Assembly (NCBI RefSeq): GCF_047600585.1
Contig: NZ_JASGKP010000001.1
Coordinates: 3,213,823 to 3,277,822, forward strand
Length of the DNA: 64,000 nt
Direction of reading: 5' to 3'
From: Aestuariivirga sp.
GTDB taxonomy: Bacteria; Pseudomonadota; Alphaproteobacteria; Rhizobiales; Aestuariivirgaceae
The notes beneath the pieces were generated by a model. It had not been told where the DNA came from and did no database searches. It saw only the letters and a list, made by a program, of their open reading frames with translations. Positions 1 through 64,000 of the stretch are shown piece after piece. A program made the position numbers and the translations under genes. Position 1 is the stretch's first letter. Every line of letters begins with the position of its first letter.

Positions 1-41
1 CTCGGGATTTCGCATTATTCAATCGGCAATGGAAAACACGG

Positions 42-461
42 ATGGCAAATCAAAGTATGCTTATGGCTGTCGCCGCGGCCTGTTCGGGTGACTTGGAGAA
101 TGATGGATCTTCGACCACTTCAGCAGATGTTAAGAGACGTGAGCTGGAGAAGGAGACAGGTCCGGTCACGGTACAGCAGCTGAAGGAACGTTATCCGGCT
201 GCTGCCGCAGCACTTATCGCTGAAGGAAAGGCAGCTGCCCGCATGGAGCAAGAGATATTGGAGCGCCTGCTGAAAGAGAACCAATCAGCCGGCGCCGCGC
301 AGGTGGCTGCGCCAGCCGTCTGTTGGAAAACTGGTGTCGACAAGCACAAGGAAGAGTGGGCGACCGATGCCAATCTGCGGAAGGAATTTTCCAGCGAGGC
401 TGCCTATCTCTGCTTCCGTAAGATGCAAGATGAAGGAAGAGTAAGGATTCTCAGCCGTTAA
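42..461 (+). CDS. Hypothetical protein resembling the C-terminal scaffolding (Nu3-like) region of lambdoid head protease/scaffold proteins
   Basis: 139-aa ORF followed by a terminator. Segments TVQQLKERYPAAAAALIAEG and EEWATDANLRKEFSSEAAYLCFRKMQDEGRVRIL recall phage S49/scaffold C-termini (from memory, not searched). Confidence 0.45.
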   Translation: MANQSMLMAVAAACSGDLENDGSSTTSADVKRRELEKETGPVTVQQLKERYPAAAAALIAEGKAAARMEQEILERLLKENQSAGAAQVAAPAVCWKTGVDKHKEEWATDANLRKEFSSEAAYLCFRKMQDEGRVRILSR

Positions 462-488
462 TCGGGCAATGTTTCCTGCCGTTGCTGC

Positions 489-523
489 AGCCTCTTCCCG
501 ATAAAGGGGAGAGGCTTTCTTTT
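489..523 (+). terminator. Rho-independent terminator after ORF 42-461
   Basis: AGCCTCTTCCC-gataaa-GGGGAGAGGCT followed by TTCTTTT. Confidence 0.7.
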
Positions 524-543
524 GCGAGTGTTGGTGGTTCCCA

Positions 544-632
544 GGGGCATAGGTTCTTCCTGCCAAATCCGCCTTCGCGGGTAGTTCGGACTATGCTCCC
601 GCTCCAGTTCGAGCGTTATCTGAGAGCCTAAA
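544..632 (+). repeat. Conserved 89-bp motif, copy 1 (putative phage packaging/cos-like site)
   Basis: GGGGCATAGGTTCTTCC-N15-CGCGGGTAGTTCGGAC-N8-CGCTCCAGT-N17-GCCTAAA; identical blocks and spacing recur at 8522-8610. Confidence 0.7.
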
Positions 633-664
633 CATGTGATGCGGTTTGGCGTCGCAGATGGAAT

Positions 665-1915
665 TCAATTCCCCTCATCTCTTGGGCGCATAAGCCTATG
701 AAAACTGCGTTGAGGTCGCAGTTGGAGAATATCGTCTGGCTCGATACCGGAAGCGCTCCTCCGACGGCTTCCGCGGGGTGTAATCACCTGAAGATCAGGA
801 CTCCTCATGATTGCTGCGCGAATGTCGTCACTGTGAGCGGGGGTCTCCCCGTAAATTACCCGGCGGAAATCGGCAACGCCAATAGTGTCCCCATAGCGAG
901 AGACCAAGCGGGGTATATCATCTGTGAGTTGATCAAGAGCCGATGCCCTGCCGACGTCGTCGAAAAGATACAGCTTTCCTTCTTCTGGCTTTTCATAAGT
1001 CAGCATCTTCAAACCTGATCTACCAAAATGAGCCTGCAAGGAAGCGTTGGCGTGCAGGATATCGTTGTAGACCTCGCGTGCTCTAGGGCTCTGCGCAAAA
1101 TGGAGCAGCCAGTAACTCCATCCTTTGTTCTTGTGCACAGAGAATGGGCTGACATACGGAGCACAACCATGAAAGACTTCAAATACAAGTCTCTCCGCCA
1201 GACCCAACCATAGCTGGTTAGTTAGGGTTGATTCACTCAGTCTCCTAATGTCGAAGTCCGGACCGAGAAAGGCGGTTTGCGCAGCCAGTTTTTTCGCGTC
1301 GCGTTTGTCCAGAAAAGCCAGAAACGAGTCGATCGAGAAGTTGTAGAACATCTCGATGTTCTTGAACGCATCAATGATGTCTCGAATGCTCTCTACCTGC
1401 ACTTGGCTATGGCCGCACTGATCCAGTATGAACAGGACATTTTCGAAGCCGTAGTGTTTAAGGCTGGTAATGAGGTAGGGGCAGATCTCCTCGAACTTTT
1501 TATCGTGGTACTTCACAGTCAGGTCGAGTTGGTCTCTGATTTCCTCCGCCTCAAGCAATAGGGGCGCTAGATTCTCTCGGAGAATTTGAATGGCAACAGA
1601 GTCTGCATCGTTGCAGATCATGAGACATTCGATGTGAAGCTCTGAGAATCCGTTGGCCTTCCTCACCAGATTGAGTGTTCGGGCTGCATTGACCAGCTCT
1701 TCGACAAAAATGAGTGGCGACCCCGGAGTGCCGTCTTTATATCGACCTGCTCCAGAAAATCCTTCGACTATGGCCAGCTTGAATTTCGATTGCCGTGGAT
1801 GTTGGCATCGGATGGAGATGTACTCCCGGAAATACTGCCGGAGGATCGTTAGCTTTGCCTTGGATTCTTCGCCAAGAACGGCGCCTCCGGACCAATCATA
1901 ATCGACCCGGACCAT
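665..1915 (-). CDS. tcmP: Three-Cys-motif partner protein TcmP (SAM-methyltransferase-like fold, C-terminal wHTH-like region)
   Basis: N-terminal SKAKLTILRQYFREY, EGFSGAGRY motif and FILDQCG motif; directly downstream of a DUF5131 gene. Confidence 0.85.
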   Translation of the reverse strand: MVRVDYDWSGGAVLGEESKAKLTILRQYFREYISIRCQHPRQSKFKLAIVEGFSGAGRYKDGTPGSPLIFVEELVNAARTLNLVRKANGFSELHIECLMICNDADSVAIQILRENLAPLLLEAEEIRDQLDLTVKYHDKKFEEICPYLITSLKHYGFENVLFILDQCGHSQVQVESIRDIIDAFKNIEMFYNFSIDSFLAFLDKRDAKKLAAQTAFLGPDFDIRRLSESTLTNQLWLGLAERLVFEVFHGCAPYVSPFSVHKNKGWSYWLLHFAQSPRAREVYNDILHANASLQAHFGRSGLKMLTYEKPEEGKLYLFDDVGRASALDQLTDDIPRLVSRYGDTIGVADFRRVIYGETPAHSDDIRAAIMRSPDLQVITPRGSRRRSASGIEPDDILQLRPQRSFHRLMRPRDEGN

Positions 1916-1924
1916 GGAATTATC

Positions 1925-2701
1925 TCACGGCGCCGCGTGCGACCCGGGCATCTCGTCCCAGGTCCGGCCACGGTATTCTCGTCCGTTTGCTTTCTTCGAT
2001 CGCTTTTTGTTGTCCTTGCCCCAAGTTCCCCACTGTTTGAAGAAGAATGCAGTGCCAGCATCAGTGCACTGGTTATAAATCTCATCGATCCACTCTTCGC
2101 GGATCGGACGCGCCTGGCGGCCACTCTCTCCACCGACTATTGCCCAGTGAATGCCGTGCAGATCGATTTCGCCGACCGGCCCGATCAGTGGCTCAAACGA
2201 GATGAAGCGAATTTTGGCCCTGACGTGCCGGATCGCATCGGCGCGGTCGACATGTTCTGCATTTTCAATGCTCGTGCCGAGCCATACATTTTCCAGTGGC
2301 GGGCCGAGACGATTGACAACCTCGGCCATTCGTTCAGGGCGCTTCGTCAAAATTTGGTAGTGGTGACGCGGTGTGCGCTCCATCACGTCCCACACTTCTC
2401 GTATGAATGCCTCCGAAACTCGTTCGTGGAACAGATCGCTCATGGAGTTCACAAAGATTTTGCGAGGCTTTTTCCATCTGTCTGGGATGCCGAGCGCACC
2501 GCGATCTTCCCTGACCACCCCATTCCAAACCGCTCTATTGCCGCTCCTGCGGACAAGGCCGCGATACTTGGGTATCCCCATGGCCTGCAGACGCTTTGCC
2601 ATCTCCATGGCGTAGCAGTTTGTGCAGCCAGCACTGACTATCGAGCAGCCAGCGACTGGGTTCCAAGTGGAGTCGGTCCACTCAATCTGTGTCTCGGCCA
2701 T
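1925..2701 (-). CDS. DUF5131 / phage Gp37-Gp68 family three-Cys (radical-SAM-like) protein
   Basis: IEWTDSTWNPVAGCSIVSAGCTNCYA, IFVNSMSDLFH, QILTKRPER, FISFEPL, WAIVGGESG, FFFKQWG, LRGRTWDEMP-like end: all hallmark motifs. Confidence 0.93.
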   Translation of the reverse strand: MAETQIEWTDSTWNPVAGCSIVSAGCTNCYAMEMAKRLQAMGIPKYRGLVRRSGNRAVWNGVVREDRGALGIPDRWKKPRKIFVNSMSDLFHERVSEAFIREVWDVMERTPRHHYQILTKRPERMAEVVNRLGPPLENVWLGTSIENAEHVDRADAIRHVRAKIRFISFEPLIGPVGEIDLHGIHWAIVGGESGRQARPIREEWIDEIYNQCTDAGTAFFFKQWGTWGKDNKKRSKKANGREYRGRTWDEMPGSHAAP

Positions 2702-2764
2702 GGCGCCTCCTACGTTGAGAATATCATCTTCTGGAGTTTTCGCCAGCTATTGGAGGTTTCCGGT

Positions 2765-2784
2765 TTCATGGAAAATTCCATGAA
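2765..2784. promoter_or_regulatory. Palindromic operator in the divergent DUF5131/HTH intergenic region
   Basis: Perfect 9-bp inverted repeat TTCATGGAA-AA-TTCCATGAA. Confidence 0.55.
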
Positions 2785-2867
2785 TAATCCAATTTGCTCC
2801 GGCGACCTCTGTGCGGCCATCTGGGGCGAGCGATCCCCAAGGAACGCGCTCCACAGAGGAAGCCTAA

Positions 2868-3095
2868 ATGCATACAAAGATCACTCCCTTTCCGGCGCCT
2901 TCGCTACTGAACGAGCACCAGGCAGCCGAGGTTCTCAATCTCACTGTCTCCTCCCTCCGCAACTGGCGTCTCCGTGGGGACGGACCTACCTTCATCAAGG
3001 CCGGCAGGTTGGTCCGCTATCGCCCGTCCGATCTGGACGACTGGGTCAACAGGCGCGCGTTTGCCAGCACCTCCCAGATGGGACGGTCCGCGTGA
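2868..3095 (+). CDS. AlpA/excisionase-like helix-turn-helix protein
   Basis: LLNEHQAAEVLNLTVSSLRNWRLRGDGPTFIKAGRLVRYRPSDLDDW is a typical MerR-like/AlpA HTH. Confidence 0.9.
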   Translation: MHTKITPFPAPSLLNEHQAAEVLNLTVSSLRNWRLRGDGPTFIKAGRLVRYRPSDLDDWVNRRAFASTSQMGRSA

Positions 3096-3544
3096 GGACG
3101 CCAGCCAAACGAGAGAGACACGGCCCCGGCGCGCGGGACATCCTGAGCGCCGAATTTCGCAAGCAGCAGCGTCCTCGCCTTCGGGTTCAGGAGATGCGTC
3201 AGCTCATCGAGCTTGGCGCCACCGCTCGGGCTTTCCACCGCGCCTTGGTCACCGGTTTCTGTACGCCTGGTGCATTCGATCTGCGGAAGGCCATTCGGCC
3301 GTTGTCCCGTCCGAATTTCGGAGAAGGGCCTGTCCTGACGTTCCAGAGCTACCTCGACAGACGAGCGTGCGAGCTCGTGCCGAGAGATATGGACACGGAG
3401 AACCTTGCCCTCCGGGTCGCCTTCGGAGAGCCGCTGCTTCTGCAGGAACAGCTGCATCTCATTCGGGCGGCCGGGATTGCTGAGCAGTCCAGGATGGCGG
3501 CAGCGAGGATATCTCCGGCCAAGGTCAAACGGAGGCCGAAATGA
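3092..3544 (+). CDS. Hypothetical satellite protein
   Basis: GTG start overlapping the HTH stop (GTGA); stop overlaps the next ATG (ATGA). It is the C-terminal part of track ORF 1937-3544. Confidence 0.6.
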   Translation: MRTPAKRERHGPGARDILSAEFRKQQRPRLRVQEMRQLIELGATARAFHRALVTGFCTPGAFDLRKAIRPLSRPNFGEGPVLTFQSYLDRRACELVPRDMDTENLALRVAFGEPLLLQEQLHLIRAAGIAEQSRMAAARISPAKVKRRPK

Positions 3545-4359
3545 AGCTCATCGCAAAAGCGAAGCAGGCTCCCGAAGGAGCCTGCCCGGCGTCTGAGGCG
3601 CCTCGAATCCACTCGGCAGGCTTTACTGCCCGGATCAGCTGCAGTGCCAAGACACGCGAGTTTCCTGGTGCCTGCCGGCGTTCTTGCCAGAAACGCAATC
3701 GACCGCGGATTTGGGCACGGCCGACGTCTTCGAAACTGCAGTGTGCGTGGATGCGTGTCGAGAGAGATTTATGCATGCAGAACAGCAACCATAAAGCGAA
3801 ACAGGCCCCCGAAGGAGCCTGCCCGATGCATGGTTTCCGTTTCACTTCCTCGAGCAGCTGGGTGCCCCATGAACGTGAAATCGAACCGGCGGTGGTTCGC
3901 CGTTCCGTGCCATCTCGCACTTGGCTGCACCTTGTGCGGCGAAACCGGTCCTTGGAGAAGCCGGGATTCGCGACGGCAAATATGCAGGCCATTTGGCAGA
4001 GTGTCGAGACTTCTAGGCCCGTGGACAGCAGACAGCAGGCCCTCGGAAGGGCCCGCTTGACGATGGGGGCAAATCAGAACATGTTGTCAGCGGGCTTAGA
4101 AACCCTGACAACGATAGAGCTGGAAGCGGTTGGCGCCGCATTCGAGCTGACGCGAGCAACCTTCACGGTTGCCGCAGCGAAGCGCCTTGGCGGGCGCTCC
4201 ACACCCGTCCTTTATGGCCGGGGGAGAGCGCTATGTCCAGAGCTCACGCTTAAAACCGCTCTGCCTGTCTCGTTGCAGGTTTCTAACCCCCGGCTTCCAG
4301 GTCCGCCACCTGGAGCAACGGGCCTTAGAAAGCCCTTCGACAACGAGGACTCCCCATGA
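3541..4359 (+). CDS. Uncertain hypothetical ORF; internal start at 3775 possible, and the 3' part overlaps a regulatory RNA region
   Basis: ATGA overlaps at both ends; contains the duplicated peptide KAKQAPEGACP. The 3' third coincides with a promoter-like site and structured RNA, so the coding extent is doubtful. Confidence 0.35.
   Translation: MKLIAKAKQAPEGACPASEAPRIHSAGFTARISCSAKTREFPGACRRSCQKRNRPRIWARPTSSKLQCAWMRVERDLCMQNSNHKAKQAPEGACPMHGFRFTSSSSWVPHEREIEPAVVRRSVPSRTWLHLVRRNRSLEKPGFATANMQAIWQSVETSRPVDSRQQALGRARLTMGANQNMLSAGLETLTTIELEAVGAAFELTRATFTVAAAKRLGGRSTPVLYGRGRALCPELTLKTALPVSLQVSNPRLPGPPPGATGLRKPFDNEDSP
3556..3825 (+). repeat. Two 33-nt direct repeats (3556-3588, 3793-3825), each containing a hairpin
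   Basis: AAAGCGAAGCAGGCTCCCGAAGGAGCCTGCCCG vs AAAGCGAAACAGGCCCCCGAAGGAGCCTGCCCG (31/33 identical); stem CAGGCTCC-CGAA-GGAGCCTG. Confidence 0.85.
4212..4313 (+). ncRNA. C4/CI-like antisense RNA (phage P1 C4 / P4 CI type immunity switch)
   Basis: Starts TTATGGCCGGGG. GCCGGGGG(4217-4224) pairs with CCCCCGGC(4287-4294), AGAGCG with CGCTCT, and there is a terminal hairpin CCAGGT-CCGCC-ACCTGG. The segment TCGTTG-CA-GGTTTCTAA (4270-4286) is complementary to sites at 4096-4114 and 4325-4346. Confidence 0.65.
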
Positions 4360-4685
4360 ATATCTCCCGCCGCGACTTTGTCGCCGGCTGCGGTGCACTC
4401 ACCGTAGCTTCCGTTCCCGCCCATGCAGACGAACCGGAAATCTCCGAATTCGTCACGCGTGTCGAATCCTGCGGTATGACGATTTTTGCGACCACGCTCG
4501 AAGGAGTGCCGGCGCTTCATCTCCACATTGATCTCACGGTCGAGTCGCCAGATTTGGAGGTCGACCGCGATGAAGTCTTCGAGCAGCTGGCCGCATGGAA
4601 GAAGCTCTCCGACTGGCAAAAGCGTCGACAGAGGATCATCCACTATCTCGTCACCACCGGCCGCAGTTATGGGGTGACGGTATGA
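4356..4685 (+). CDS. Small hypothetical protein with a twin-arginine-like signal peptide
   Basis: RBS GAGGA at 4345-4349; N-terminus MNISRRDFVAGCGALTVASVPAHA (SRRxF, hydrophobic stretch, AxA). Confidence 0.7.
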   Translation: MNISRRDFVAGCGALTVASVPAHADEPEISEFVTRVESCGMTIFATTLEGVPALHLHIDLTVESPDLEVDRDEVFEQLAAWKKLSDWQKRRQRIIHYLVTTGRSYGVTV

Positions 4686-4861
4686 AGCGCCTCACCCGTC
4701 GACGGACCTGGGCGAGCTTCCAGCAGAGAGAGAGGCGCGGACTTGTCCGCGCCTTCAGTCTCCGCCTCCCCCGAAAATTTCAAGCGAACAGGTGTTATTC
4801 AACTGCATCTCATCTCCCGGTGCACCGTCCTGCTCCTCACGATCCGCGGGGTGCAAAATGA
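4682..4861 (+). CDS. Small basic hypothetical protein
   Basis: ATGA overlaps with both neighbours (MKRLTRRRTW...). Confidence 0.5.
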   Translation: MKRLTRRRTWASFQQRERRGLVRAFSLRLPRKFQANRCYSTASHLPVHRPAPHDPRGAK

Positions 4862-5169
4862 AGCCGTCGCGCAAAATCGATTTCGCCCGGATCAATGCCC
4901 GAGCGCTCGCAAGTGCAGACTCCATCCTCGTCCGATGGCTGCCAGACGGCCGCCGCGAAGGCACTGAATGGGTAGCCCTGAACCCGCGGCGCAGCGACAA
5001 GCGCCGGGGATCCTTCAAGGTCAACCTCCACACCGGGAAGTGGGGTGACTTCGCTGCCGGCGCGAGTGGTGGTGATCTCGTCTCGCTCGCGGCCTACCTC
5101 TTCGACCTCGGCCAAGGAGAGGCGGCCCTCAAGGTGTCGGACATGTTGGGAGTGGACCCACATGTCTGA
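4858..5169 (+). CDS. Primase N-terminal (zinc-binding-domain-like) protein, stand-alone
   Basis: WLPDGRREGTEWVALNPRRSDKRRGSFKVNLHTGKWGDFAAGASGGDLVSLAAYL is typical of satellite/phage primase N-domains. Confidence 0.75.
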   Translation: MKPSRKIDFARINARALASADSILVRWLPDGRREGTEWVALNPRRSDKRRGSFKVNLHTGKWGDFAAGASGGDLVSLAAYLFDLGQGEAALKVSDMLGVDPHV

Positions 5170-7342
5170 CCCCTTCGCTCCGATCCATACCGCCGATGAC
5201 CCTCCGCGTTCTAAGGCGAAGCAGGATACCTGGGAGGTCATCTCACCAGTTCCTGACGAAGCTCCCGCTCCTCCCGCTGAGCACTACTCACGAGGCAAGC
5301 CGTCCCGCAGCTGGCAGTACCTGGATGCCACAGGGAAGCTCCTCGGCTTCGTGTGGCGCTTCGACACTGAGGAAGGTGAAAAGGAGTTCCTGCCGCTCAC
5401 CTACTGCCGCAAGGCAGACGGATCGGGCGCCAGCTGGAGGTTCAAGTCCTGGACCGCGCCGCGCCCGCTCTACGGGCTCAGGAAGCTCGCTGTCTCTCCG
5501 TTCCCGGCGGTTCTAGTCTGTGAGGGTGAAAAAGCTGCAGACGCGGCCCAGAGGCTCCTGCCGGACCTTGTAACGGTCACCAGCCCGGGAGGGTCAAAGG
5601 CGGCCACAAAGGCAGACTGGAGCTCGCTGGCCGGGCGGGACGTGGCCATCTGGCCAGATAACGATGCTGCCGGCAAAGACTATGCGGAACAAGTTGCCCG
5701 CTTCGCCCGAAAGGCCAAGGCCATTTCGGTGGTGGTAATCACGCCGCCGGCCGGCGTTGCACAAGGTTGGGATGCGGCCGACGCGGAAGCGGAGGGTTTC
5801 AGCCCGGACCACCTGAAGGCACTGATCGATGGCGCCAAGGTTCTCAATCGCGAGTCTTCAGACGCCGCCGATGAAAAGCCCGAAGATGACGAGCCCAAGC
5901 GGCGGAGGCCCCGCCAGTCGACCGAGACTATTGATCTCCTCGACAGCCTTGATGTCGAGTTTTGGATTGATCAGGACGGTGAAGCCTTCGCAAGTGTTCC
6001 CGTGAATGGCCACTTCGAGAACAGGTCACTCAGATCGAAGGAGTTCAAGAGATGGCTCGCTGGCCAGCAATACCGCGCCACCGGTGGCGCCATCAGCTCA
6101 CAGGTGCTAGAGGACAGCCTTCGCGTGCTGGAAGCGCGAGCCTCGATCGATGGCCAGCAGTACGACACCTGGCGCCGTGTCGGGGAACACAGCGGGAAGA
6201 TCTACATCGACCTTGGCGATGCCTCCTGGCGAGCCGTCGAAGTGACGTCGCTCGGATGGAAGGTCATCAGCAATCCGCCCTGCAAGTTCATCCGCGGTAG
6301 CGCAATCCGCGCACTGCCGGAGCCCCTTATGGGCGGCTCAGTGGATGCTCTGAGGGGGTTCTTCAATTTTGAGAGTGACGATGAGTTCCAGCTGTTGGTC
6401 ATGTGGACCGTTCAGGCGCTCCGATCAAAAGGACCCTACCCGGTTCTTTGCATCAATGGCGAGCAAGGCTCTGGCAAAAGCATCCTGACGCAGGTGCTGC
6501 GATCGCTGACCGATCCGAACGGCGCTCCACTACGCGCTGCGCCCGGCGACGATCGGGACCTCTTTGTGATGGCAAACAACGCATGGGTCCTTGCCCTCGA
6601 CAATCTCTCCAGCATTTCCGAATGGCTGAGCGACGCACTGTGCCGGGTTTCAACTGGTGGCGGCTTTTCCACCCGTACCCTGCACAGCGACAAGGACGAG
6701 ACATTCTTCTATCTGCAGAGGCCGATCATCCTCAATGGCATTCCCTCACTCACGAACCGGCCGGATCTAGCAGATCGATCGGTGTCCCTCTTCCTCAAGG
6801 CAATGCCGGCCGGCAGACGGAGAGCGGAAGAAGAGTTCTGGAAGGACTTTGACAAGGCCGCGCCCGAGATCCTCGGGGCTCTGCTTGACGGTGTCTCGGC
6901 CGGCCTTCGCAATGTCGACAAGGTCAAGATTGCGGAAGTTCCCCGCATGGCAGATTTTACAAAGTGGATGTTGGCAACCGAGCCTGGCCTTGGTTTCAAG
7001 GAGGGATCCACCTTCGCAGCCTACCAAGAGAACCGTCGAGAGATCTCCGAGACGACTTATGAGGCCGATCCAGTCGCGGTGGCGATCGCCAACCTTGCCA
7101 AGCACAAGGGCAGTTTGGATTGTGGTGTCTCCGAGCTACTGACTATGCTCAACGATGCCTCTCCCGAAGCGCTACGCAAGTCCAGGAGCTGGCCCGCGAG
7201 CCCAACCGGTCTCGGCTCGAAGATCCGGCGAGTCGCTCAAGTCCTCCGCGATCAAGGATTCCTGATCGATTTCGGTCACTCCGGGAAGCGCTTCGTGCGG
7301 ATCATTGCGCCGGCTGAATTGGAGCTCCAGGCTGGGAGGTAG
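5162..7342 (+). CDS. Toprim primase - P-loop helicase fusion (satellite replication protein)
   Basis: Toprim VLVCEGEKAADA...IWPDNDAAG; Walker A NGEQGSGKS; ALDNLS; IILNGI; RPDLADRS. Start ATG 5162 overlaps the upstream ORF. Confidence 0.88.
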   Translation: MSDPFAPIHTADDPPRSKAKQDTWEVISPVPDEAPAPPAEHYSRGKPSRSWQYLDATGKLLGFVWRFDTEEGEKEFLPLTYCRKADGSGASWRFKSWTAPRPLYGLRKLAVSPFPAVLVCEGEKAADAAQRLLPDLVTVTSPGGSKAATKADWSSLAGRDVAIWPDNDAAGKDYAEQVARFARKAKAISVVVITPPAGVAQGWDAADAEAEGFSPDHLKALIDGAKVLNRESSDAADEKPEDDEPKRRRPRQSTETIDLLDSLDVEFWIDQDGEAFASVPVNGHFENRSLRSKEFKRWLAGQQYRATGGAISSQVLEDSLRVLEARASIDGQQYDTWRRVGEHSGKIYIDLGDASWRAVEVTSLGWKVISNPPCKFIRGSAIRALPEPLMGGSVDALRGFFNFESDDEFQLLVMWTVQALRSKGPYPVLCINGEQGSGKSILTQVLRSLTDPNGAPLRAAPGDDRDLFVMANNAWVLALDNLSSISEWLSDALCRVSTGGGFSTRTLHSDKDETFFYLQRPIILNGIPSLTNRPDLADRSVSLFLKAMPAGRRRAEEEFWKDFDKAAPEILGALLDGVSAGLRNVDKVKIAEVPRMADFTKWMLATEPGLGFKEGSTFAAYQENRREISETTYEADPVAVAIANLAKHKGSLDCGVSELLTMLNDASPEALRKSRSWPASPTGLGSKIRRVAQVLRDQGFLIDFGHSGKRFVRIIAPAELELQAGR

Positions 7343-7420
7343 GGGAAAATTAATCTTTTGGTAAGATTCTGTTCCAGCTTGGGGAATTCTCATCGCATTT
7401 CCCTGGAACGGTGCGTGGGG

Positions 7421-7477
7421 TTGACGAGTTCAACATGTATCACTAAGGTCTGTTTTTAATCAACAAAAACAGACCTT
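7421..7477 (+). promoter_or_regulatory. Sigma70-like promoter overlapped by a 13-bp inverted-repeat operator
   Basis: TTGACG-N17-TAAGGT (7421-7449); AAGGTCTGTTTTT-AATCAAC-AAAAACAGACCTT (7445-7477). Confidence 0.65.
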
Positions 7478-7496
7478 TATTTCAGGGAAGCGCGTC

Positions 7497-7691
7497 ATGA
7501 CGAATCTGAAGACGAATGATCAGCTGCTGAGGAAAATGAGGTCAGCTGCATCGAAAAGCCTCACCGCCGAAGAGCTCCGCCAACAGAAAATCTCTTTCAT
7601 CATGGCCAATTTTGATGAAGAGAGTTCGGTTACTCGCGATTACGTGGGTGCCGTCCTGGACAAGCAGGATGGCCGCAAGTCGGCAGCGTAA
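7497..7691 (+). CDS. Small protein upstream of Fic (putative antitoxin/partner)
   Basis: 64 aa, RBS AGGGAAG; its stop TAA directly abuts the GTG start of the Fic gene. Confidence 0.65.
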   Translation: MTNLKTNDQLLRKMRSAASKSLTAEELRQQKISFIMANFDEESSVTRDYVGAVLDKQDGRKSAA

Positions 7692-8417
7692 GTGATAATC
7701 TTCGAGATCACCGGCAGGGAGGACAGTCCCGCGTACCGGGATCTCGAAGTATCTAATGGCGAGAGGCAATTCGACTTCCTCCGATCAACGGTGGCAGCCT
7801 CACTCGCGTTGAAGCGCCCTTTTATTTCCCAGCATCTTTTGAAGGCCTTGAATTTCCATGCGATCGCCTGTTTGCACACCAGTGCAGGCGAGTTCCGTCC
7901 CTGCGAGGTGACAGTCGGCGCGTACAGGCCTCCGTCTCCTCACCGCGTCCAGGCTCAGATGGATGACTTCATCAATCAGGTCAACAGAGCCTGGGAGACG
8001 GCAGATCCTGTTTTCCTCGCGTGCTATGTACTGTGGCGTCTCAACTACATTCACCCGTTCATCAATGGCAATGGGCGGACCGCCCGCGCCGCCTGTCTGT
8101 TCGTGCTTTGTGTGAAGGCCGGTGGCTGGTTGTCCGGTGAACCTATCCTACCAGATCTTCTGAAGCGAGAACGAGCCAACTATGTCGCCGCCCTTCAAGT
8201 CGCTGACCGAACTTTCGAAGCTACGGGAGATGCCGATCTCAGGCTCCTACATGGCCTCGTCGCCAGTCTGCTTTATGAGCAGCTCAACGGCGTAAGGGAT
8301 GAGCCTCAAGTCGATGAGCCTGCTGCCGCAGCTCCTGTCGTGGAGAATAACATCGATCCGGAAGAGATCCGCCCGCGGCGGGAACCCGACGACAATGACG
8401 CTGCTGTCCAAGAATAA
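7692..8417 (+). CDS. Fic/Fido domain protein
   Basis: Motif HPFINGNGRTAR; acidic C-terminal tail. Confidence 0.9.
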   Translation: MIIFEITGREDSPAYRDLEVSNGERQFDFLRSTVAASLALKRPFISQHLLKALNFHAIACLHTSAGEFRPCEVTVGAYRPPSPHRVQAQMDDFINQVNRAWETADPVFLACYVLWRLNYIHPFINGNGRTARAACLFVLCVKAGGWLSGEPILPDLLKRERANYVAALQVADRTFEATGDADLRLLHGLVASLLYEQLNGVRDEPQVDEPAAAAPVVENNIDPEEIRPRREPDDNDAAVQE

Positions 8418-8521
8418 GACTACTGCCTTTACCCCGCTCCCCCGCGCCTCTCTCTGCGCCAAGCGGCGGTCACTGCAAGCGCAAGAGCTGGTAAGGCGAC
8501 TTGAGCCACGCTTTGACCGGG

Positions 8522-8610
8522 GGGGCATAGGTTCTTCCGGGCCACTTGCGGTACGCGGGTAGTTCGGACCGTGTACACGCTCCAGTCTCAGGGAATGGCC
8601 TCAGCCTAAA
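8522..8610 (+). repeat. Conserved 89-bp motif, copy 2 (putative packaging/cos-like site)
   Basis: Same four blocks and identical spacer lengths as 544-632, with unrelated spacer sequences; followed by further CCTAAA/CCTA repeats. Confidence 0.7.
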
Positions 8611-8764
8611 GTCCTAAAGAGCCTACTGCAGGTTGCCGAATACCCATTGTTTGCATGGCTCATGCGGTGGCTGCAGGGCGATCGGTTCGGCCGTTCCAGG
8701 ATCTCGAGTGCGAAGGATTCCGCTTTTTTTAGTGGTCGGCGCCAGGCCGTGCCCCGAGCCAATT

Positions 8765-8960
8765 TGGACACCTTGCCGGCGCCGTCGCTGCACTCCGCGA
8801 AAAACTCAGCGCGGGGTTTCGGGCCGCAGTTGGACACCTGTGGGCACCTGTGGACACTTTGCGAAATTCAAAAGATGCCCATTTTTTGATGGTTTCGGAC
8901 ACCTTGGACGCCTTGGACACCTTCTTTTTTTTAATAGGATAAATATTGAAAGAGAAAGAG
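8765..8960 (+). repeat. Iteron-like array (TGGACACCT consensus, 7 copies) plus AT-rich tract: putative replication origin
   Basis: One copy at 8765; three in tandem at 8831/8841/8851 (10-nt period); three at 8896/8905/8914 (9-nt period); followed by TCTTTTTTTTAATAGGATAAATATTGAAAG. Confidence 0.7.
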
Positions 8961-9076
8961 TACGAGAGTGTTCGATTACTCTGTAGGCTGCTTCCCCGAT
9001 GCTTCTCCGTTTAAGCGGGCGCGAGAACACCGAAGATGGAACAGCCTCTATATTATTGAATTTGAAAGGGAAAAGA

Positions 9077-9153
9077 TGGTACAGCCTCCCAGGCTTGAAC
9101 TGGGGACCCCCAGATCCACAATCTGGTGCTCTAACCAACTGAGCTAAGGCTGC
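9077..9153 (-). tRNA. tRNA-His (GTG), lacking encoded G-1, with A73
   Basis: GCAGCCTTAGCTCAGTTGGTTAGAGCACCAGATTGTGGATCTGGGGGTCCCCAGTTCAAGCCTGGGAGGCTGTACCA; anticodon loop TT-GTG-GA; CCA encoded. Confidence 0.97.
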
Positions 9154-9228
9154 ACTGCGCGCTTCACTAGCGCAACATTCCCGCCAGTGCAAACACTTGC
9201 ATGGCGGGGCCGTTAACATGCGGTGAGA

Positions 9229-9258
9229 CAAAGAAAAGGCCCGAAAAAATCGGGCCTT
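9229..9258 (-). terminator. Rho-independent terminator after phasin
   Basis: AAGGCCCGA-N5-TCGGGCCTT with an A-run on + (U-tail on -). Confidence 0.7.
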
Positions 9259-9310
9259 GAGGTTGGCAGTCCGGGAGGGAGGACCGCCGGGAAAAACCAA
9301 AAGTCGAAGC

Positions 9311-9736
9311 TCAGGCTGCCTTCGGGAAGGGGAAGGCCGCGAAGCTCTTCTTGAGGCCGTCCTGCACCGGGGCAGCGGCTTCACGGACCAGCGCCACGGT
9401 GGCGTCGTTCAGGTCCTGGAACTGCTTGAGCGCCACTTCCGACTGGCTCTTGAAGAAGCCCTGCTGGAGCGCGAACAGCGCCTCGGGCGACTTCACGCCG
9501 GCGGCTTCGCGCCAGAAGCCGAGAAAGGCCTTCGTGTTGGCTTCGAAATAGGAGAGCGACTTGGCCTGCAGGTCGGCGAGGCGCTCCTGGTAAACCTTGG
9601 CGGAGGCGCTCAGCGCTTCAACGCTTTCCTTGGCCGGACCCGCTTCGCCGCCGAAGGTGGCCTTGGCGGTGTCGATCGAGTCGGTGACGAATTCGGTGGC
9701 GAGTTCGACGGGGGTCTTGGTCTTGCGGGCGTTCAT
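9311..9736 (-). CDS. Phasin family (PHA granule-associated) protein
   Basis: Ala/Lys-rich helical protein with the FWREAAGVKSPEALFALQQGFFKSQ phasin-like core. Confidence 0.8.
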   Translation of the reverse strand: MNARKTKTPVELATEFVTDSIDTAKATFGGEAGPAKESVEALSASAKVYQERLADLQAKSLSYFEANTKAFLGFWREAAGVKSPEALFALQQGFFKSQSEVALKQFQDLNDATVALVREAAAPVQDGLKKSFAAFPFPKAA

Positions 9737-9781
9737 GACTCTTACTCCTCAATGGGTGGATTGACCTTCATATAGCAGGTT

Positions 9782-9819
9782 TATTGTGCATTGCAACATG
9801 AATTTTGCAGCGCACAATA
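9782..9819. promoter_or_regulatory. Probable PhaR operators upstream of phasin
   Basis: TATTGTGCATTGCAA and TTGCAGCGCACAATA: inverted pair of TGC-N3-GCA sites. Confidence 0.6.
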
Positions 9820-9977
9820 CGGCTGCCTGAAAGATCGCCAGCGGACAGGGTTAAGGAAGTGTGGACGCGGCCTCTCAAACTTGATTTATTGCAACGACTT
9901 GGACGGGCTTCCTGGGGTTTTGGCCCCGGTTCGTCCGGGGCCCGGTTGGTTTCGGGTCAGTTTGGCAGATCGAGTTT

Positions 9978-12590
9978 ATGAGCACCCTTCGCCCCCGCAC
10001 CCTTGAGGACCTCCGGCAGGACGCAAGCCCCGCCTGGCTGTGGGATGCCGCGCGCGGGCGGATCGTCTGGGCCAATGCCGCGGGGGTTGCGGCCCTGGGC
10101 GGCGAGAGCGTCTTCGATCTGGTGGACCGTCCCTTCGACCCCCTCGACCCCGCCGTGCAAGAGATCCGCGAACAGGTGGCAGGGCTCCAGCCCGGCCAGG
10201 TCCGGCAGACCCGCCTCCCGCTCCCCGATGGCGATACGGAAGCGCCCGTCCAGTGCAGCCTTCATCTTCTGGCCGATGGCCGGCAGGGGCTGCTTGTCGT
10301 GGCCGAGCCTGCCCCCAAGAAAATTTCGGCAATCGTGGGTGACGTGGCGCAATCGACGCTCCTTCACCTGCCCGTCGCCGTGCTGATCCTCGATGCCGCC
10401 GGCACGATCGTGAACGGCAATGCCGCCGCAGGCGAGATGCTGGACCTGTCCGTCCCACGCAAGCTTTCCGAGCTTGCCGCCCCGGAGAAGACGGAAGCCC
10501 TGTTCGCCGGATTGAAACGCGCCAATGTCGGCAGCGCCATCCTCGCCATGGCCTGCAAGCTCGGCGCGCGTGAAGTGCGCGTCACGCTCTCGCGCCTGCC
10601 GGGGCAGGAGCTGTTGAGCGCCATCCTTGAAGACGTGACCGACCGCCGCGCCCTCGAGCGGAGCCTGCAAGGGCAACCCGCCACGGCCCCCGCCGCAACT
10701 CCGGCGCAGGATGCCTTCGCCCAGCTTGCGAAGTCGCTTCAGGATACGATCGAACGGCAATCGGCCGCGCGCACCCAGAAGGATGCGGAACCGGTTGCCG
10801 AAGCGGCCCCCAAGCCCGCATCTCCGCCCCGCCCGCCGAAGCCAGCACCTGAAGCAGCACCTCCGGCAGCAACACTTGCTCCGTCCACGGACAATTCTTC
10901 CAAGGGTGGCGGCACAGCGGCGCCCCCGTCCGGCAGGAAGGCCGCGCCCTTCGTGCCCGAACCCGTGCGCCAGTCCTTCGAGCGGACCGGTGAGGCGATC
11001 ATGATCGGCCGCGGTGATGCCCCGCTCTTCGCAACATCGAAGGCGGCGGCCCTGCTCGGCTATGACTCGACTGCAAGCCTCATGTCCGACACCGGCCTCT
11101 GGCAACATTTCAAGGCCGTGGCGCAAGCGCCGAAGCGCACCAGCCTGCCGCTTGCAGGCGGCGAGAGCATCGACATCGACGTGAGCCACGGCTGCGTGCC
11201 TTGGGTGAACGGCCCTGCCGAGCAGATCGTCATCCGGCGGAGCGTGACGCCATACGTGAAGCCGGAACCGGCCAAGCCCGCACCGGCGCCTGTTGTCGTT
11301 GCAACACCACCGCCCGCACCTGTGCCGGTGCCGCCGCCCACGCCCGTTGCACCACCTGCTCCTGTGGTGGCCGCCGAACCGCCGCCACCGCCTCCTCCGG
11401 CGCCTGCGCCCACGGTCACGGCTGCGCCGCAGCCCGAGCCTGCGCCAACGCTTGCAGTCAGCCAGCAGGTGATGGAAACGACCGAGCTCAAGGCCATGCT
11501 CGACGTGGCCTCGGACGGCATCATCGCCCTTGATGACGAGGGCCGCATCCTCAGCTTCAGCGCCGGCGCCGAGGCGATCTTCGGCATGAGTCAGGACGAA
11601 GTCGTGGGCCGGCCCTTCGCCGAACTGCTCAGTTCCGACGGCCGCAAGCCCTGGCGCGATTATCTCGCAGCACTCCGCGGCCCCGGTCTCGCCAGCGTCT
11701 TCAATGACGGGCGCGAATTCACCGCCATCGTCAAGCAGGGCGGCACGGTTCCGCTCTTCGTCACGCTGGGCAAGCTGCAATCGCCGCACTCGCAGGCGAG
11801 CTTCTGCGCCGTTGTGCGCGACATCACCCAGTGGAAGCGCACCGAGCAGGAGCTGCGCGAGGCGAAGGAAGCCGCCGAAAGCGCGAGCCGCCAGAAGTCG
11901 GAATTTCTCGCCGGCATCAGCCACGAGATCCGTACGCCGCTCAATGCCATTCTCGGCTTCTCCGATGTCATGCGCCTGGAGCGCTTCGGCGAACTGAAGA
12001 ACGACAAGTACCGCGCCTATGCCAACGACATTCACGCCAGCGGCACCCATCTGCTCGCACTGGTGAACGATCTGCTCGATCTGTCAAAGGTGGAGTCGGG
12101 CAAGCTCGAGCTTGATTTCACCGCCGTCAATGTCGTCGACGCCGCCGAACACGTGCTGCGTCTGATGAGCGAAGAGGCGGCGCGCGCCAATGTGGTGGTG
12201 CGCAAGTCGTTTTCTCCGTCCCTGCCCCGCGTCGTCGCCGATCTCCGGGCGCTCCGTCAGGTGCTGCTCAATCTCGTCTCGAACGCCATCAAGTACACCG
12301 ATGCGGGCGGGCAGGTGATCGTCTCCGCCCTGATGGAAGAGACGGGTGAAGTGGTGCTGCGGGTGAAGGACAGCGGCATCGGCATGGACGCCACGCAGTT
12401 GCAGGAAGCGCTCCGCCCTTATGTGCGGGTGGAATCGGTTGCCCGCGAACGGCAGGGCACGGGCCTTGGCCTGCCGCTCTCCAAGGCGCTGGTGGAAGCG
12501 AACCGCGCCCAGTTCACGATCGCCAGCGAGCCCGGCCAGGGCACGCTTGCGGAAGTGCGTTTCCCCGCCACCCGCGTACTCGCGGAATAA
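9978..12590 (+). CDS. pdhS: PAS-domain cytoplasmic histidine kinase, PdhS/DivJ/PleC-like
   Basis: Multiple PAS domains, Pro-rich linker, H-box ISHEIRTPLNAILGFS, N/G boxes NLVSNAIKYT, DSGIGM, GTGLGL; no TM segment. The symbol is tentative. Confidence 0.75.
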   Translation: MSTLRPRTLEDLRQDASPAWLWDAARGRIVWANAAGVAALGGESVFDLVDRPFDPLDPAVQEIREQVAGLQPGQVRQTRLPLPDGDTEAPVQCSLHLLADGRQGLLVVAEPAPKKISAIVGDVAQSTLLHLPVAVLILDAAGTIVNGNAAAGEMLDLSVPRKLSELAAPEKTEALFAGLKRANVGSAILAMACKLGAREVRVTLSRLPGQELLSAILEDVTDRRALERSLQGQPATAPAATPAQDAFAQLAKSLQDTIERQSAARTQKDAEPVAEAAPKPASPPRPPKPAPEAAPPAATLAPSTDNSSKGGGTAAPPSGRKAAPFVPEPVRQSFERTGEAIMIGRGDAPLFATSKAAALLGYDSTASLMSDTGLWQHFKAVAQAPKRTSLPLAGGESIDIDVSHGCVPWVNGPAEQIVIRRSVTPYVKPEPAKPAPAPVVVATPPPAPVPVPPPTPVAPPAPVVAAEPPPPPPPAPAPTVTAAPQPEPAPTLAVSQQVMETTELKAMLDVASDGIIALDDEGRILSFSAGAEAIFGMSQDEVVGRPFAELLSSDGRKPWRDYLAALRGPGLASVFNDGREFTAIVKQGGTVPLFVTLGKLQSPHSQASFCAVVRDITQWKRTEQELREAKEAAESASRQKSEFLAGISHEIRTPLNAILGFSDVMRLERFGELKNDKYRAYANDIHASGTHLLALVNDLLDLSKVESGKLELDFTAVNVVDAAEHVLRLMSEEAARANVVVRKSFSPSLPRVVADLRALRQVLLNLVSNAIKYTDAGGQVIVSALMEETGEVVLRVKDSGIGMDATQLQEALRPYVRVESVARERQGTGLGLPLSKALVEANRAQFTIASEPGQGTLAEVRFPATRVLAE

Positions 12591-14270: not shown

Positions 14271-16228
<1,958 letters not shown>

Positions 16229-61571: not shown

Positions 61572-62175
61572 GTGCAAGACCTGCCGGTGCTGGCGGATGA
61601 GGCCCTGGCCGCCGCCCTGCAGCGGCTTTCCCGCCGGGAGACGCGCCTGTGCCTCCGTCACAAGCTCATCACCCTGCCGGAGAGGGATGGTGCCCCGCAC
61701 TACGCCGCCGCCAACGATCATGCCCTGCGCCGGGCCCGCCGTCTTGGCCTGCACGTCTCTGCCGTGGTGGATGGCGCGGCGTTCGATGCCGCCGTGCGCC
61801 ACGTGCTGGGACCGGAGCTGCTGCATCAGGCCACCCGCGCGCTGGCAGAGGATGCCGCCGAGCTTTCGGCCTTCCGCCGCCTCACACCGGAAGAAGCTGT
61901 GGCGGCAACCGCGCTCACGCTTTCTGCCGGGCTCGCCCTCATCCATTTTGACTCCGTCAAGATCCTCGTTGCCCTCACCCTGCTGGCAGGCGCGCTCTTC
62001 GCCATGATGGTAGCGATCCGGCTTTTTGCGCTTCTCTCCGGCAGCCGTCCCGTCAGTGCCCGCGCGCCGCCGCTCCGTGACGAGTCGCTTCCGGTCTACA
62101 CCGTGCTGGTGCCGCTCTTCCGGGAAACGGCCGTGCTTGAGCAACTGATCACCGGCCTTGTCCACCTGCACTATC
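61572..62175 (+). pseudogene. GT2 glycosyltransferase 5' fragment interrupted by IS
   Basis: GTG start after AGGAG; two TM helices, then LPVYTVLVPLFRETAVLEQLITGLVHLHYP. The frame runs into the IS end and stops at 62213, before the GT2 catalytic motifs. Confidence 0.8.
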
Positions 62176-62307
62176 CGGCCTTATGTATCAAGCGCACCAA
62201 TTCAAAAGCTTGAAAAAAGTCTAAAGGTGGCGTCCCGGCGTGTGAGTGGGATTTTGGCGCAGAGACGCCACCCATCCCATTGGCCCATAGGATGGTGACT
62301 TTTTATC

Positions 62308-62736
62308 ATGCAACCCCAAATACTCAATACCCTCGCCACCAAGCGCGCGGAGATCGAAAGCTACATCGCCCATCTGGAAACCGCCTTGGAGCAAGCCAGG
62401 CGCGACCTGTCCGCCATCTTGGCCGCCACGGCGGTATTCTCGGGCGAAGGCCCGCTTCCCAAGTCCTACATGAACCTGACACGGCTATTCCCCCGGTACG
62501 AGCTGCCCAAGCTATGCAAGCGGGCGCTTGAGACGGCCAATGCACCGATCTCCACGCGGGAGATCGCGGCCTACGTGATCCGGGAGAAGGGTTTGGACGG
62601 ACAGGATCGCCACCTCCGGAAGGCCATCGCCTACAAGGTTGTCAACATCATGCGGCGGTGGGAGCGGGACCGGAGGGTCGCTCGGACGGCAAAGGTCGCG
62701 GGCGCTATCGTTTGGCGCCCTTTTTCGTTGCCTTGA
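62308..62736 (+). CDS. IS passenger hypothetical protein (N-terminal coiled coil, C-terminal wHTH-like)
   Basis: LNTLATKRAEIESYIAHLE...ARRDLSAILAA; ISTREIAAYVIREKGL; type often seen at ends of IS1595 elements (from memory). Confidence 0.75.
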   Translation: MQPQILNTLATKRAEIESYIAHLETALEQARRDLSAILAATAVFSGEGPLPKSYMNLTRLFPRYELPKLCKRALETANAPISTREIAAYVIREKGLDGQDRHLRKAIAYKVVNIMRRWERDRRVARTAKVAGAIVWRPFSLP

Positions 62737-63400
62737 TCTTTGATGGCGCTTTTTTGGCTTTTTTCGCCGTCTTGGATTTCTTGACCTTTTTGCTGGCTGT
62801 GGAGGTTTTTGTAGGCAGCCGCTTCTTCTTCTTAATTATGTTCTGGGGCTCAGAAGCAAATTCAAAGATCGTAATGAGCGTGTTTATTGGCAGCTTGTCT
62901 TGTTCAAGTATCTTGAGTTCGTAGGTGGAAAGTTCCCGATTATTATCAACGCTGCGGTCCACTATGTATGGTTCAATCGTTTCACAGGAGTATGCCGCCA
63001 ACACATCTGTGAGACGGAGATAGACGTCAATCCTATGACCCTTTAGGTCGGTCCCGAGAAAAACGCCTGCGCAAGCTAGGGCATATATTTCGTTGGCTCG
63101 GGCCTGTTGCAGTGTCCGTGCGTTGTTAGGGTCCCGTGGGAGAAAAGGCTGAAGGCGAGCAATTACCAAACAGGTGAGGGCAGCTGCTTTCGCTGGATGC
63201 GTTCTGTGTCCATCCACTATTCGCCAACGCTTGTAAGCGTCATTCAGAAGAAAATAGCTTTCTGCAACGCTCTTTAGCAAATTAGATCGGAAAATGACCC
63301 CCTTGTCAGAGATCACTCCGGTTGAAATAAGTTCATCAGCTATCTCGCGAAGCAAATTTTCGCGCGCGCGAATTTCTTCGTCAGACGGAAAGTCTGCCAC
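62705..63400 (-). CDS. IS passenger protein, possible degenerate Doc/Fido fold, with Lys-rich tail
   Basis: 231 aa; KAAALTCLVIARLQPF...ANEIYALACAGVFL; C-terminal KKKKRLPTKTSTASKKVKKSKTAKKAKKAPSKIKATKKGAKR. Confidence 0.7.
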   Translation of the reverse strand: MADFPSDEEIRARENLLREIADELISTGVISDKGVIFRSNLLKSVAESYFLLNDAYKRWRIVDGHRTHPAKAAALTCLVIARLQPFLPRDPNNARTLQQARANEIYALACAGVFLGTDLKGHRIDVYLRLTDVLAAYSCETIEPYIVDRSVDNNRELSTYELKILEQDKLPINTLITIFEFASEPQNIIKKKKRLPTKTSTASKKVKKSKTAKKAKKAPSKIKATKKGAKR

Positions 63401-63428
63401 GATTACCTCAGATGAATGTAAGGCTTAC

Positions 63429-63629
63429 TCAGACCGAGTAAGAAGACAGTTTCTTAAGATTTTCCATAAGACCCGGCGAAACTCTAGACAGATTCTGCTT
63501 GAGTTTAGAATAGGTCAACTTGGAGTGGTTGTTATCTTCTTTTCGGCTATCAAGAGCCGTGACGGCTGGACCCCGGACAATTATCTTTGTCTCAGAGAGC
63601 GCGGAGTCGTCCACAATTTCGACTGCCAT
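63429..63629 (-). CDS. Small IS passenger protein (possible antitoxin-like partner)
   Basis: 66 aa directly upstream of 62705-63400, own promoter-like site, ends LMENLKKLSSY. Confidence 0.55.
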   Translation of the reverse strand: MAVEIVDDSALSETKIIVRGPAVTALDSRKEDNNHSKLTYSKLKQNLSRVSPGLMENLKKLSSYSV

Positions 63630-63643
63630 TTTCTTGACCTGCC

Positions 63644-63672
63644 ATTATAACAATAGGTTAGCCTGCAGTAAA
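63644..63672 (-). promoter_or_regulatory. Sigma70-like promoter for the passenger operon
   Basis: Minus strand TTTACT(63672-63667)-N17-TATAAT(63649-63644). Confidence 0.55.
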
Positions 63673-63721
63673 AACCGCGAGCTTTCTCTTGGACCGGGAT
63701 TGTCAATAAAAGCGCTATTTG

Positions 63722-64000
63722 TCAAGCGTTTTTCTGCCAATAGCCTTTCCATGACCGGCTAACGGGGTGATGCATGGACAGGGCGGCCAGACGCCCCGCC
63801 AGTTCGCCGTTTGACAGGCGGCGGTGATCTTCAAGCCAAGCAGCGTGGTTGGCGTACTGCCCAAGATACTTGCCCGAGACGTGGTGATGCTGACCCCGGA
63901 TCATCCGGCGAAGGCGGCTGAAGTAGCTTTCGACCTGATTTGTGCAGCTTTCCGGCGTGGCATAGGCGTCCGAATGGTTAACGCGGCCAACCTGCCAGCC
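63722..64000 (-). CDS. IS1595 family (ISXO2-like DDE) transposase, C-terminal part
   Basis: Frame open to the window edge: VNHSDAY...CTNQVESYFSRLRRMIRGQHHHVSGKYLGQYANHAAWLEDHRRLSNG...WKGYWQ. Confidence 0.93.
   Translation of the reverse strand, partial: GWQVGRVNHSDAYATPESCTNQVESYFSRLRRMIRGQHHHVSGKYLGQYANHAAWLEDHRRLSNGELAGRLAALSMHHPVSRSWKGYWQKNA

Follow-up and report, generated by a model that had tools for sequence, protein, structure and literature searches.

The 64-kb stretch of Aestuariivirga sp. DNA analyzed in this work (contig NZ_JASGKP010000001.1; 64,000 nucleotides (nt), hereafter the window) contains two copies of a spaced-block motif in an island of low guanine-plus-cytosine (GC) content that ends at a tRNA-His gene. 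Both copies, designated cos1 and cos2, are most probably (probability about 0.85) lambda-type cohesive-end (cos) packaging sites of a helper-dependent integrative element at tRNA-His, i.e., a phage satellite and not a phage. The same site architecture is linked to terminase genes in a family of phages, and physical DNA ends of these phage relatives coincide with the conserved 12-mer in the site. Cleavage at the two window sites, the helper dependence of the island and any role of its having two sites are what we infer. In cos sites of this kind cosQ serves in termination of packaging, cosN in cutting, and cosB in binding of the small terminase subunit (PMC6739421).

Two spaced-block sites with identical blocks and randomized spacers

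An earlier note made from the sequence alone had reported two copies of a four-block motif about 8 kb apart, and the pair was confirmed in every position: the shared blocks GGGGCATAGGTTCTTCC, CGCGGGTAGTTCGGAC, CGCTCCAGT and GCCTAAA are identical at 49 of 49 nt and the spacers are equal in length, while a manual count on both sequences found only 12 of 40 spacer positions identical (30%), which is the random level. The two copies are 7,978 bp apart in the same orientation, and their elements were assigned as follows.

544-632, + strand: cos1 motif, four blocks with spacers of 15, 8 and 17 nt
544-560, + strand: cos1 block 1, cosQ-like; core AGGTTCT at 551-557, beginning 29 nt before the cohesive end
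576-591, + strand: cos1 block 2, cosN; predicted cohesive end GGTAGTTCGGAC at 580-591, predicted nicks between 579 and 580 (top strand) and between 591 and 592 (bottom strand)
600-608, + strand: cos1 block 3, post-cosN element CGCTCCAGT, equivalent of CGCTAGT in the phage family and CGCTAT in lambda
626-633, + strand: cos1 block 4, single cosB-type repeat GCCTAAAC, with an ATG directly after it
8522-8610, + strand: cos2 motif, four blocks with spacers of 15, 8 and 17 nt
8522-8538, + strand: cos2 block 1, cosQ-like; core AGGTTCT at 8529-8535, beginning 29 nt before the cohesive end
8554-8569, + strand: cos2 block 2, cosN; predicted cohesive end GGTAGTTCGGAC at 8558-8569, predicted nicks between 8557 and 8558 (top strand) and between 8569 and 8570 (bottom strand)
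8578-8586, + strand: cos2 block 3, post-cosN element CGCTCCAGT, equivalent of the same phage-family and lambda elements
8604-8626, + strand: cos2 cosB repeats GCCTAAAG, TCCTAAAG and AGCCTAC; three CCTAAAG-type repeats, where cos1 has one

Block 2 consists of a 4-nt left flank, CGCG, and the 12-nt cohesive-end sequence that closes the block, so placed that cleavage of the window DNA would fall at 580-591 and 8558-8569. The likeness of cos2 to such a site runs beyond the end coordinate given in the earlier note, with further CCTAAAG-type repeats at 8612-8626. The 16-mer and 17-mer blocks occur exactly twice each in the window (expected counts at up to 3 mismatches, 0.71 and 0.12, respectively), and in a repeat search the cos1/cos2 pair was the top-ranked direct repeat of the region. 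Perfect blocks beside randomized spacers rule out a recent duplication and indicate selection on spaced sequence elements, in agreement with the earlier proposal of a protein-recognized site. The exact 17-mer GGGGCATAGGTTCTTCC was also seen in two low-GC viral contigs (L007, 5568-5584; L010, 34-50; L numbers are our locus handles), in both cases just past a terminator-like hairpin and with no recognizable cosN, where it could be a chance occurrence or a different type of site.

A phage family with the same site upstream of its terminase genes

Relatives with the same layout were first obtained by single-block scans of IMG/VR contigs. A degenerate pattern of block 1 plus block 2 matched at least 120 IMG/VR viral contigs, and a profile made from the phage sites found exactly one site per locus in 182 phage loci; in the window the profile matched at cos1 and cos2 only (E = 3.7e-9 and 3.8e-8). 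The layout of the family is GGGTCCTCC, about 16 nt, cgcG, GGTAATTCGGAC, CCCG, a T-rich stretch, CGCTAGT, lineage-specific short direct repeats, and an open reading frame (ORF). Block 1 of the window sites aligns with GGGTCCTCC, which lies 27-29 nt ahead of the cohesive end in 98 dereplicated phage cos regions. The sequence 'ctagt' after cosN, which was absent from every search pattern, is kept at the same offset in these regions.

The genes that follow the site are those of a DNA packaging module. In L006, L024, L047 and L190 an ORF of 180-260 amino acids (aa) occupies the terS position and is followed by a TerL gene with GpA_ATPase and GpA_nuclease domains; a lambda-family portal comes next after TerL in L006 and L190, and in L190 the portal is followed by an S49 protease and a Mu-gpT-type capsid gene. 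When the 71 loci with at least 3.5 kb of downstream sequence were counted, a gpA-type TerL gene was present downstream on the same strand within 3.5 kb in 56 and within 4.5 kb in 8 more. No HNH gene, as expected in the earlier note, was seen beside the phage-family cos site; the system is of the lambda Nu1/gpA type.

The putative small-terminase binding elements, i.e., the cosB repeats, are also shared with phages. The heptamer GCCTAAA keeps its offset (+47 to +53) in the phage loci L006, L121 and L185 as well as in the related satellites L215 and L218 (see below), the cos2 string GCCTAAAGTCCTAAA is identical to a string just before terS in phage contig L185, and CTAAAG-type repeats run up to the start of terS in L006, L121, L185 and Sinorhizobium phage phi2LM21. 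Phages L014 and L109 use CTTGACACC repeats as cosB. In otherwise near-identical phage contigs (L082 compared with L097, L099 and L108) the cosQ-cosN spacer of about 15 nt is completely different; this spacer is hypervariable even over short time scales.

Physical DNA ends at the 12-mer

Twenty-three phage contigs begin exactly with GGTAATTCGGAC (scan with GGTAATTCGGACCCCG), and six more begin with GGTAATTCGGAC preceded by one non-genomic T where the genome has G, an extra base that we read as an A-tailing remnant. Nine contigs terminate exactly after GGTAATTCGGAC, and in contig L096 the sequence ...TTCGGAC runs straight into the Illumina adapter AGATCGGAAGAG. For each of two phage lineages both a right and a left end were found, together with uncut junction contigs in which the 12-mer occurs once. 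Since the 12-mer stands at both ends of end-repaired virion DNA, it corresponds to a filled-in 12-nt 5' overhang in the lambda arrangement, which indicates that the phage family has a 12-nt 5' cohesive end as lambda does.

The suggestion that the blocks are terminase recognition and cleavage sites is thus supported by the shared architecture in 182 phage loci, the terminase context and the DNA ends, and the check proposed with it, a search for the motif upstream of terminase genes and at virion DNA ends, found both in phages. The sticky end had been placed in the variable 15-nt spacer; it is instead the conserved 12-mer (GGTAGTTCGGAC in the window) within block 2, the spacers being linkers of fixed length and unconstrained sequence.

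The mapped DNA terminus explains the conservation of the blocks, and it bears on the alternative given in the earlier note, a structured non-coding RNA gene in two copies. Blocks with variable spacers of equal length can mark stems and loops, and an 8-bp stem can be drawn around GTAGTTCGGA in copy 2, but there was no Rfam match at gathering or relaxed thresholds, the minimum-free-energy folds disagree between the copies and are not significant (z-scores of -1.4, -1.2, -2.3 and +0.5 for both strands of both copies), and the conserved 12-mer is the DNA terminus itself. We consider an RNA gene extremely improbable. A conserved hairpin around cosN was rejected on our own inspection: of the 8 pairs of the copy-2 stem, 2 Watson-Crick and 2 G-U pairs are left in copy 1, and the register is shifted in L009, the one other relative in which the stem can be drawn.

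Comparison with lambda cos

The sites resemble lambda cos (Nu1/gpA) in the order of the elements and in the 12-nt 5' cohesive end. Block 1 aligns with the lambda cosQ heptamer GGGTCCT, which begins 29 nt before lambda position 1 (J02459); AGGTTCT or GGGTCCT is found here at the same distance of 29 nt ahead of the end, and the likeness to lambda cosQ pointed out in the earlier note was correct. A CGCTA-type element lies just past the end in both systems (TTTTCGCTAT starts 7 nt past the cohesive end in lambda, CGCTCCAGT 8 nt past it in the window), short direct repeats precede the small-terminase gene, and the phage relatives have a gpA-family TerL and a lambda-family portal. The differences are in the cohesive end (GGGCGGCGACCT in lambda versus GGTA[A/G]TTCGGAC here), in the cosB repeats, which have another sequence and are nearer to cosN here, and in the window sites adjoining no terminase gene.

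In tblastn with three TerL proteins of the phage relatives against a collection of deposited phage genomes nothing exceeded 48% identity, blastn of a phage cos region against this collection gave no informative match, and the sole match to the cos 12-mer in the literature was an unrelated plant paper.

The island that carries the two sites

The first ~9 kb of the window has a GC content of 53-62%, whereas the rest has 62-68% until about 62 kb; a second low-GC stretch (54%) is present at the right end of the window (62000-64000). The features of the island other than the cos sites are listed below.

1-461, + strand, starting before the window: gene upstream of cos1, product P0121 (170 aa), no family match
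489-520, + strand: terminator-like hairpin plus T run, GCCTCTTCCC GATA AAGGGGAGAGGC TTTCTTTT, between the P0121 gene and cos1
665-1915, - strand: TcmP (three-Cys-motif partner; TIGR04474, 1.3e-59), low-GC cargo
1925-2701, - strand: DUF5131 (PF07505, 7.8e-102), low-GC cargo
2868-3095, + strand: AlpA/excisionase-type helix-turn-helix gene (phrog_66, E = 1.5e-8), core gene
4792-5169, + strand: conserved ORF of ~100 aa, replication core
5162-7342, + strand: primase-helicase, 726 aa (PHROG primase/helicase matches), replication core
7497-7691, + strand: small ORF, cargo
7692-8417, + strand: Fic/DOC protein (PF02661, 4.4e-18; TIGR02613 'mobile mystery protein B', 1.2e-11), cargo
8764-8921, + strand: cluster of TTGGACACC-type iterons between cos2 and the tRNA gene
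9077-9153, - strand: tRNA-His(GTG) (ARAGORN and Rfam), right boundary of the low-GC island

No terminase, portal or integrase homologue was detected in the window, and a terminase gene missing near the sites is expected for a satellite. The AlpA-type gene, primase, cargo, low GC content and tRNA-His, together with the lack of terminase and portal genes, fit the satellite-like element that had been suggested. The AlpA-type gene is 51-64% identical to the HTH_17 genes of the related elements L214-L218, and unknown ORFs lie between it and the ~100-aa ORF, which is kept along with the primase-helicase in all related elements. The cargo is more particular to the window: the TcmP-DUF5131 pair has no counterpart in the related satellites, megablast of window 1-10000 against plasmids matched only a DUF5131 fragment, and the small ORF plus Fic/DOC gene, which looks like a toxin-antitoxin-like cargo pair, is absent from the relatives. 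No public sequencing run was found to contain window 300-1300.

P0121 has only 15 weak relatives among 1.8 billion proteins. Over the last 36 aa it shares 53% identity with the C-terminus of an ORF (190 aa) in phage contig L190, which is located between the S49 prohead protease and major capsid genes, where scaffold proteins are usually encoded. By this resemblance P0121 may be a satellite-encoded scaffold mimic.

The iterons of the window recur in every close relative in the interval from cos to the tRNA, irrespective of which tRNA is targeted, as 5-7 copies arranged in two groups (L214, 7960-8060; L215, 8050-8150; L216, 9330-9420; L217, 6470-6570). They are a possible replication origin or possible integrase arm sites; as the CTTGACACC repeats of phages L014 and L109 serve as cosB, they could conceivably also be a second set of terminase sites.

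The sequence TGGAACAGCCTC at 9037-9048 repeats the 3' end of tRNA-His, TGGTACAGCCTC (9077-9088), at a distance of 40 nt start to start, and may be what an integration or excision event left behind; the tRNA-His 3' end has no other copy in the window, and none near cos1. This has a bearing on whether the two motif copies could be attachment (att) or recombination sites on either side of a mobile segment, or remnants of decayed prophages, as direct repeats ~8 kb apart in an island beside a tRNA gene might suggest. However, an att repeat is an uninterrupted identical core, usually with the 3' end of the tRNA included, and here that end is repeated only at 9037-9048; the blocks match cos architecture. 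A phage cos, for its part, precedes terS-terL, which is absent here, and the gene upstream of cos1 differs from that upstream of the phage cos. We consider att sites or prophage relics very unlikely.

Related satellites often have two cos sites

More than 1000 homologues of the primase were found, many of them on contigs of 6-9 kb and many named 'putative DNA primase/helicase' by JGI. The close relatives L214-L217 have a common order of integrase - alpA - small ORFs - primase - cos - the same iterons - tRNA; L215 and L218 have an integrase, as do L214 and L216 in the same position. Related elements adjoin tRNA-His or tRNA-Arg and occur in Bradyrhizobium, Xanthobacteraceae and Beijerinckiaceae.

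L214: tRNA-Arg; two cos sites ~115 bp apart
L215: tRNA-Arg; two cos sites ~115 bp apart
L216: tRNA-His, with the same PAS histidine-kinase neighbor as the window; two cos sites ~115 bp apart
L217: contig end resembling a truncated tRNA gene (our own reading; ARAGORN reported none); one cos, with the exact block 1 of the window

Two cos sites are present in 4 of 7 satellites examined versus 0 of 182 phage loci, and a scan of IMG/VR for tandem cos pairs found 0; paired cos sites look like a satellite trait. The sequence CTCCAGTCTCAG of cos2 block 3 occurs also in the first cos of L214 and L216.

Searches for further copies of the site were less productive. The strict two-block pattern had 0 matches in 185,579 species genomes. 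When metagenomes were scanned for block 1 together with cosN, 3 loci came up; all of them differ from the window, and one (L221) is another primase-to-cos element. Scanning genome contigs with the primase gave one distant locus, 80 IMG/VR loci with distant primase relatives contained no cos of this family, and distant primase relatives that have an integrase after the primase were likewise without such a cos. Bradyrhizobium erythrophlei (LT670818.1) has a related element at tRNA-His (L302) in which, at 14290-14470, GGGTCCTTCC and the spacing are kept, while the putative cosN, CGGCTCAAGGCGGCAC, is another one and the repeats are CCCTGACG; its cargo hotspot between int and alpA is large, and its cargo includes restriction-modification-like genes and HipA. 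The satellites apparently exchange cos modules so as to suit different helpers.

In L214, L215 and L216 one cos has GCCTWAAG repeats and the other GGTTGAC repeats; the former type precedes terS in phages L006, L121 and L185 and the latter in L012 and L158. The idea of the earlier note that cos1 and cos2 serve two different helper phages draws on the same kind of evidence, i.e., the pairing of two repeat types in three relatives, the occurrence of each type before terS in different phage contigs, and the two cos sites with different cosB regions in the Escherichia coli satellite EcCICFT073 (PMC6739421). In the window, however, cos1 and cos2 are identical in cosQ, cosN, the post-cosN element and the first cosB repeat, the only differences being the count of CTAAAG repeats and the unconstrained spacers. 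As no conserved determinant differs, two helper specificities do not explain the window pair, although they fit the relatives, and for cos1 and cos2 we judge dual specificity quite unlikely.

By its gene order (primase - cargo - cos - iterons - tRNA, as in the relatives) cos2 is the canonical packaging site; 7,978 bp upstream of it lies cos1, a second site that, judged from its elements, has the same specificity and orientation. Two origins of the pair remain: both sites may lie in one long element whose cargo region contains an extra cos, or two elements may form a composite. In the composite, cos2 would belong to the satellite proximal to tRNA-His and cos1 to a second neighboring or degraded element on the left (170-aa gene - terminator - cos1), whose iterons and att site, along with the integrase of the proximal satellite, would have been lost or replaced by the TcmP-DUF5131 cargo, the same blocks being kept at both sites because both must fit the same helper terminase. 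This origin would account for the position of cos1, since in the relatives cos comes directly after the primase or cargo and before the iterons, while cos1 has neither iterons nor the usual flanks. It would also fit the lack of an integrase between cos1 and alpA, where L215 and L216 have one, and the fully randomized spacers, which agree with independent descent and not with an internal duplication. Against it, there is no second tRNA-His fragment or att repeat to the left of 9037 and no second alpA or primase within the window, and the large int-alpA cargo hotspot of L302 makes a single long element equally possible. We hold the composite to be a real possibility at somewhat less than even odds.

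Proposed mechanism and points that weigh against it

As lambda-type cos sites of a satellite, cos1 and cos2 would be used by a helper with a Nu1/gpA-type terminase, the small subunit of which would bind the CTAAAG-type cosB repeats. The terminase would then nick between 579 and 580 and between 591 and 592 at cos1, or between 8557 and 8558 and between 8569 and 8570 at cos2, and packaging would run rightwards until it stops at the next cosQ-cosN in the same orientation, with the island loaded into virus particles. Protein contacts must stay at set distances, so that the spacers would be fixed in length and free in sequence; this would leave perfect blocks alongside randomized spacers.

Several observations count against this interpretation. 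The site cos1 has only one cosB repeat and is without the iterons and flanks seen around cos in the relatives, and it may be unable to start packaging. Two cos sites in the same orientation in one small replicon would yield two incomplete pieces unless termination depends on head filling. Lambda-type termination needs a nearly full head; several units might be packaged per head, the second cos merely adding possible end points, which is speculation on our part. No phage with exactly the four blocks of the window was found in the species genomes or metagenomes. The physical ends all come from phage relatives whose 12-mer has A where the window has G (position 5), the G variant being seen at one contig end (L114). 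Finally, the window contains no integrase and the left end of the island lies outside it, so a single element is not established.

In a further scheme the 7,978-bp stretch between cos1 and cos2 would itself be the packaging unit, cut by a helper terminase at one cos and the next, either straight from the chromosome or from concatemers, and loaded into undersized capsids built with P0121, the C-terminus of which would mimic that of the helper-type protein encoded at the scaffold position; more broadly, the multiple cos sites of the family would act as interchangeable adaptors to several helpers. We regard this scheme as rather unlikely.

Relation to known satellites

The note's statement that EcCICFT073 has two cos sites agrees with the published report, in which this chromosomal satellite with int, alpA and a primase-type replication gene copies the cosQ and cosN of its helper (PMC6739421). 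It resembles the present elements in these genes and in its two sites, but the cosB of EcCICFT073 is unlike that of the helper and is read by an Rpp-TerS heterodimer, whereas cosB here copies phage repeats and no Rpp-like gene was identified. The bacterial class is also different, the core is much smaller here (about 5.3 kb in L216), and three relatives have their two sites next to each other, with a different phage-type cosB set at each.

The satellite P4 carries an integrase and resides at a tRNA gene; it likewise has a large primase-helicase, iterons at its origin, a hotspot for cargo and a cos that copies that of its helper. The P2-type cos has 19 nt, in contrast to the 12-nt lambda-type cos, present twice, in the window. 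Searches of the island ORFs against Pfam, NCBIfam and PHROGs gave no match to the P4 families psu, sid, delta or epsilon.

PICMIs and marine VEIMEs are reported to be packaged as concatemers or to be concatemeric in virions (PMC10803314, PMC9618062). Like the elements studied here, they are very small int/alpA/primase elements with no capsid-remodeling genes; concatemer packaging would also solve the size problem of this island. They are marine (Vibrionaceae, Pelagibacter and others) and are likened here by description and not by sequence, and the word 'cos' does not occur in the VEIME paper.

Significance

The lambda kind of cos architecture is known, and EcCICFT073 is a precedent for a satellite with two cos sites (PMC6739421). 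What appear to be new are the cohesive-end family, whose terminases are less than 50% identical to those of any phage in the deposited genome collection searched, the capture of this cos by very small alphaproteobacterial int-alpA-primase elements, and the tandem pairing of two phage-type cosB sets in three relatives. From sequence alone it was possible to pin down where the DNA of a large lambda-like phage lineage is probably cut, and its 12-nt cohesive end. The two copies in the window amount to a natural mutagenesis experiment in which the unchanged positions are candidate terminase contacts. Small integrative elements of soil alphaproteobacteria copy phage cos sites, and satellites with two cos sites, some of them with different cosB sets, suggest a simple way to widen the helper range.

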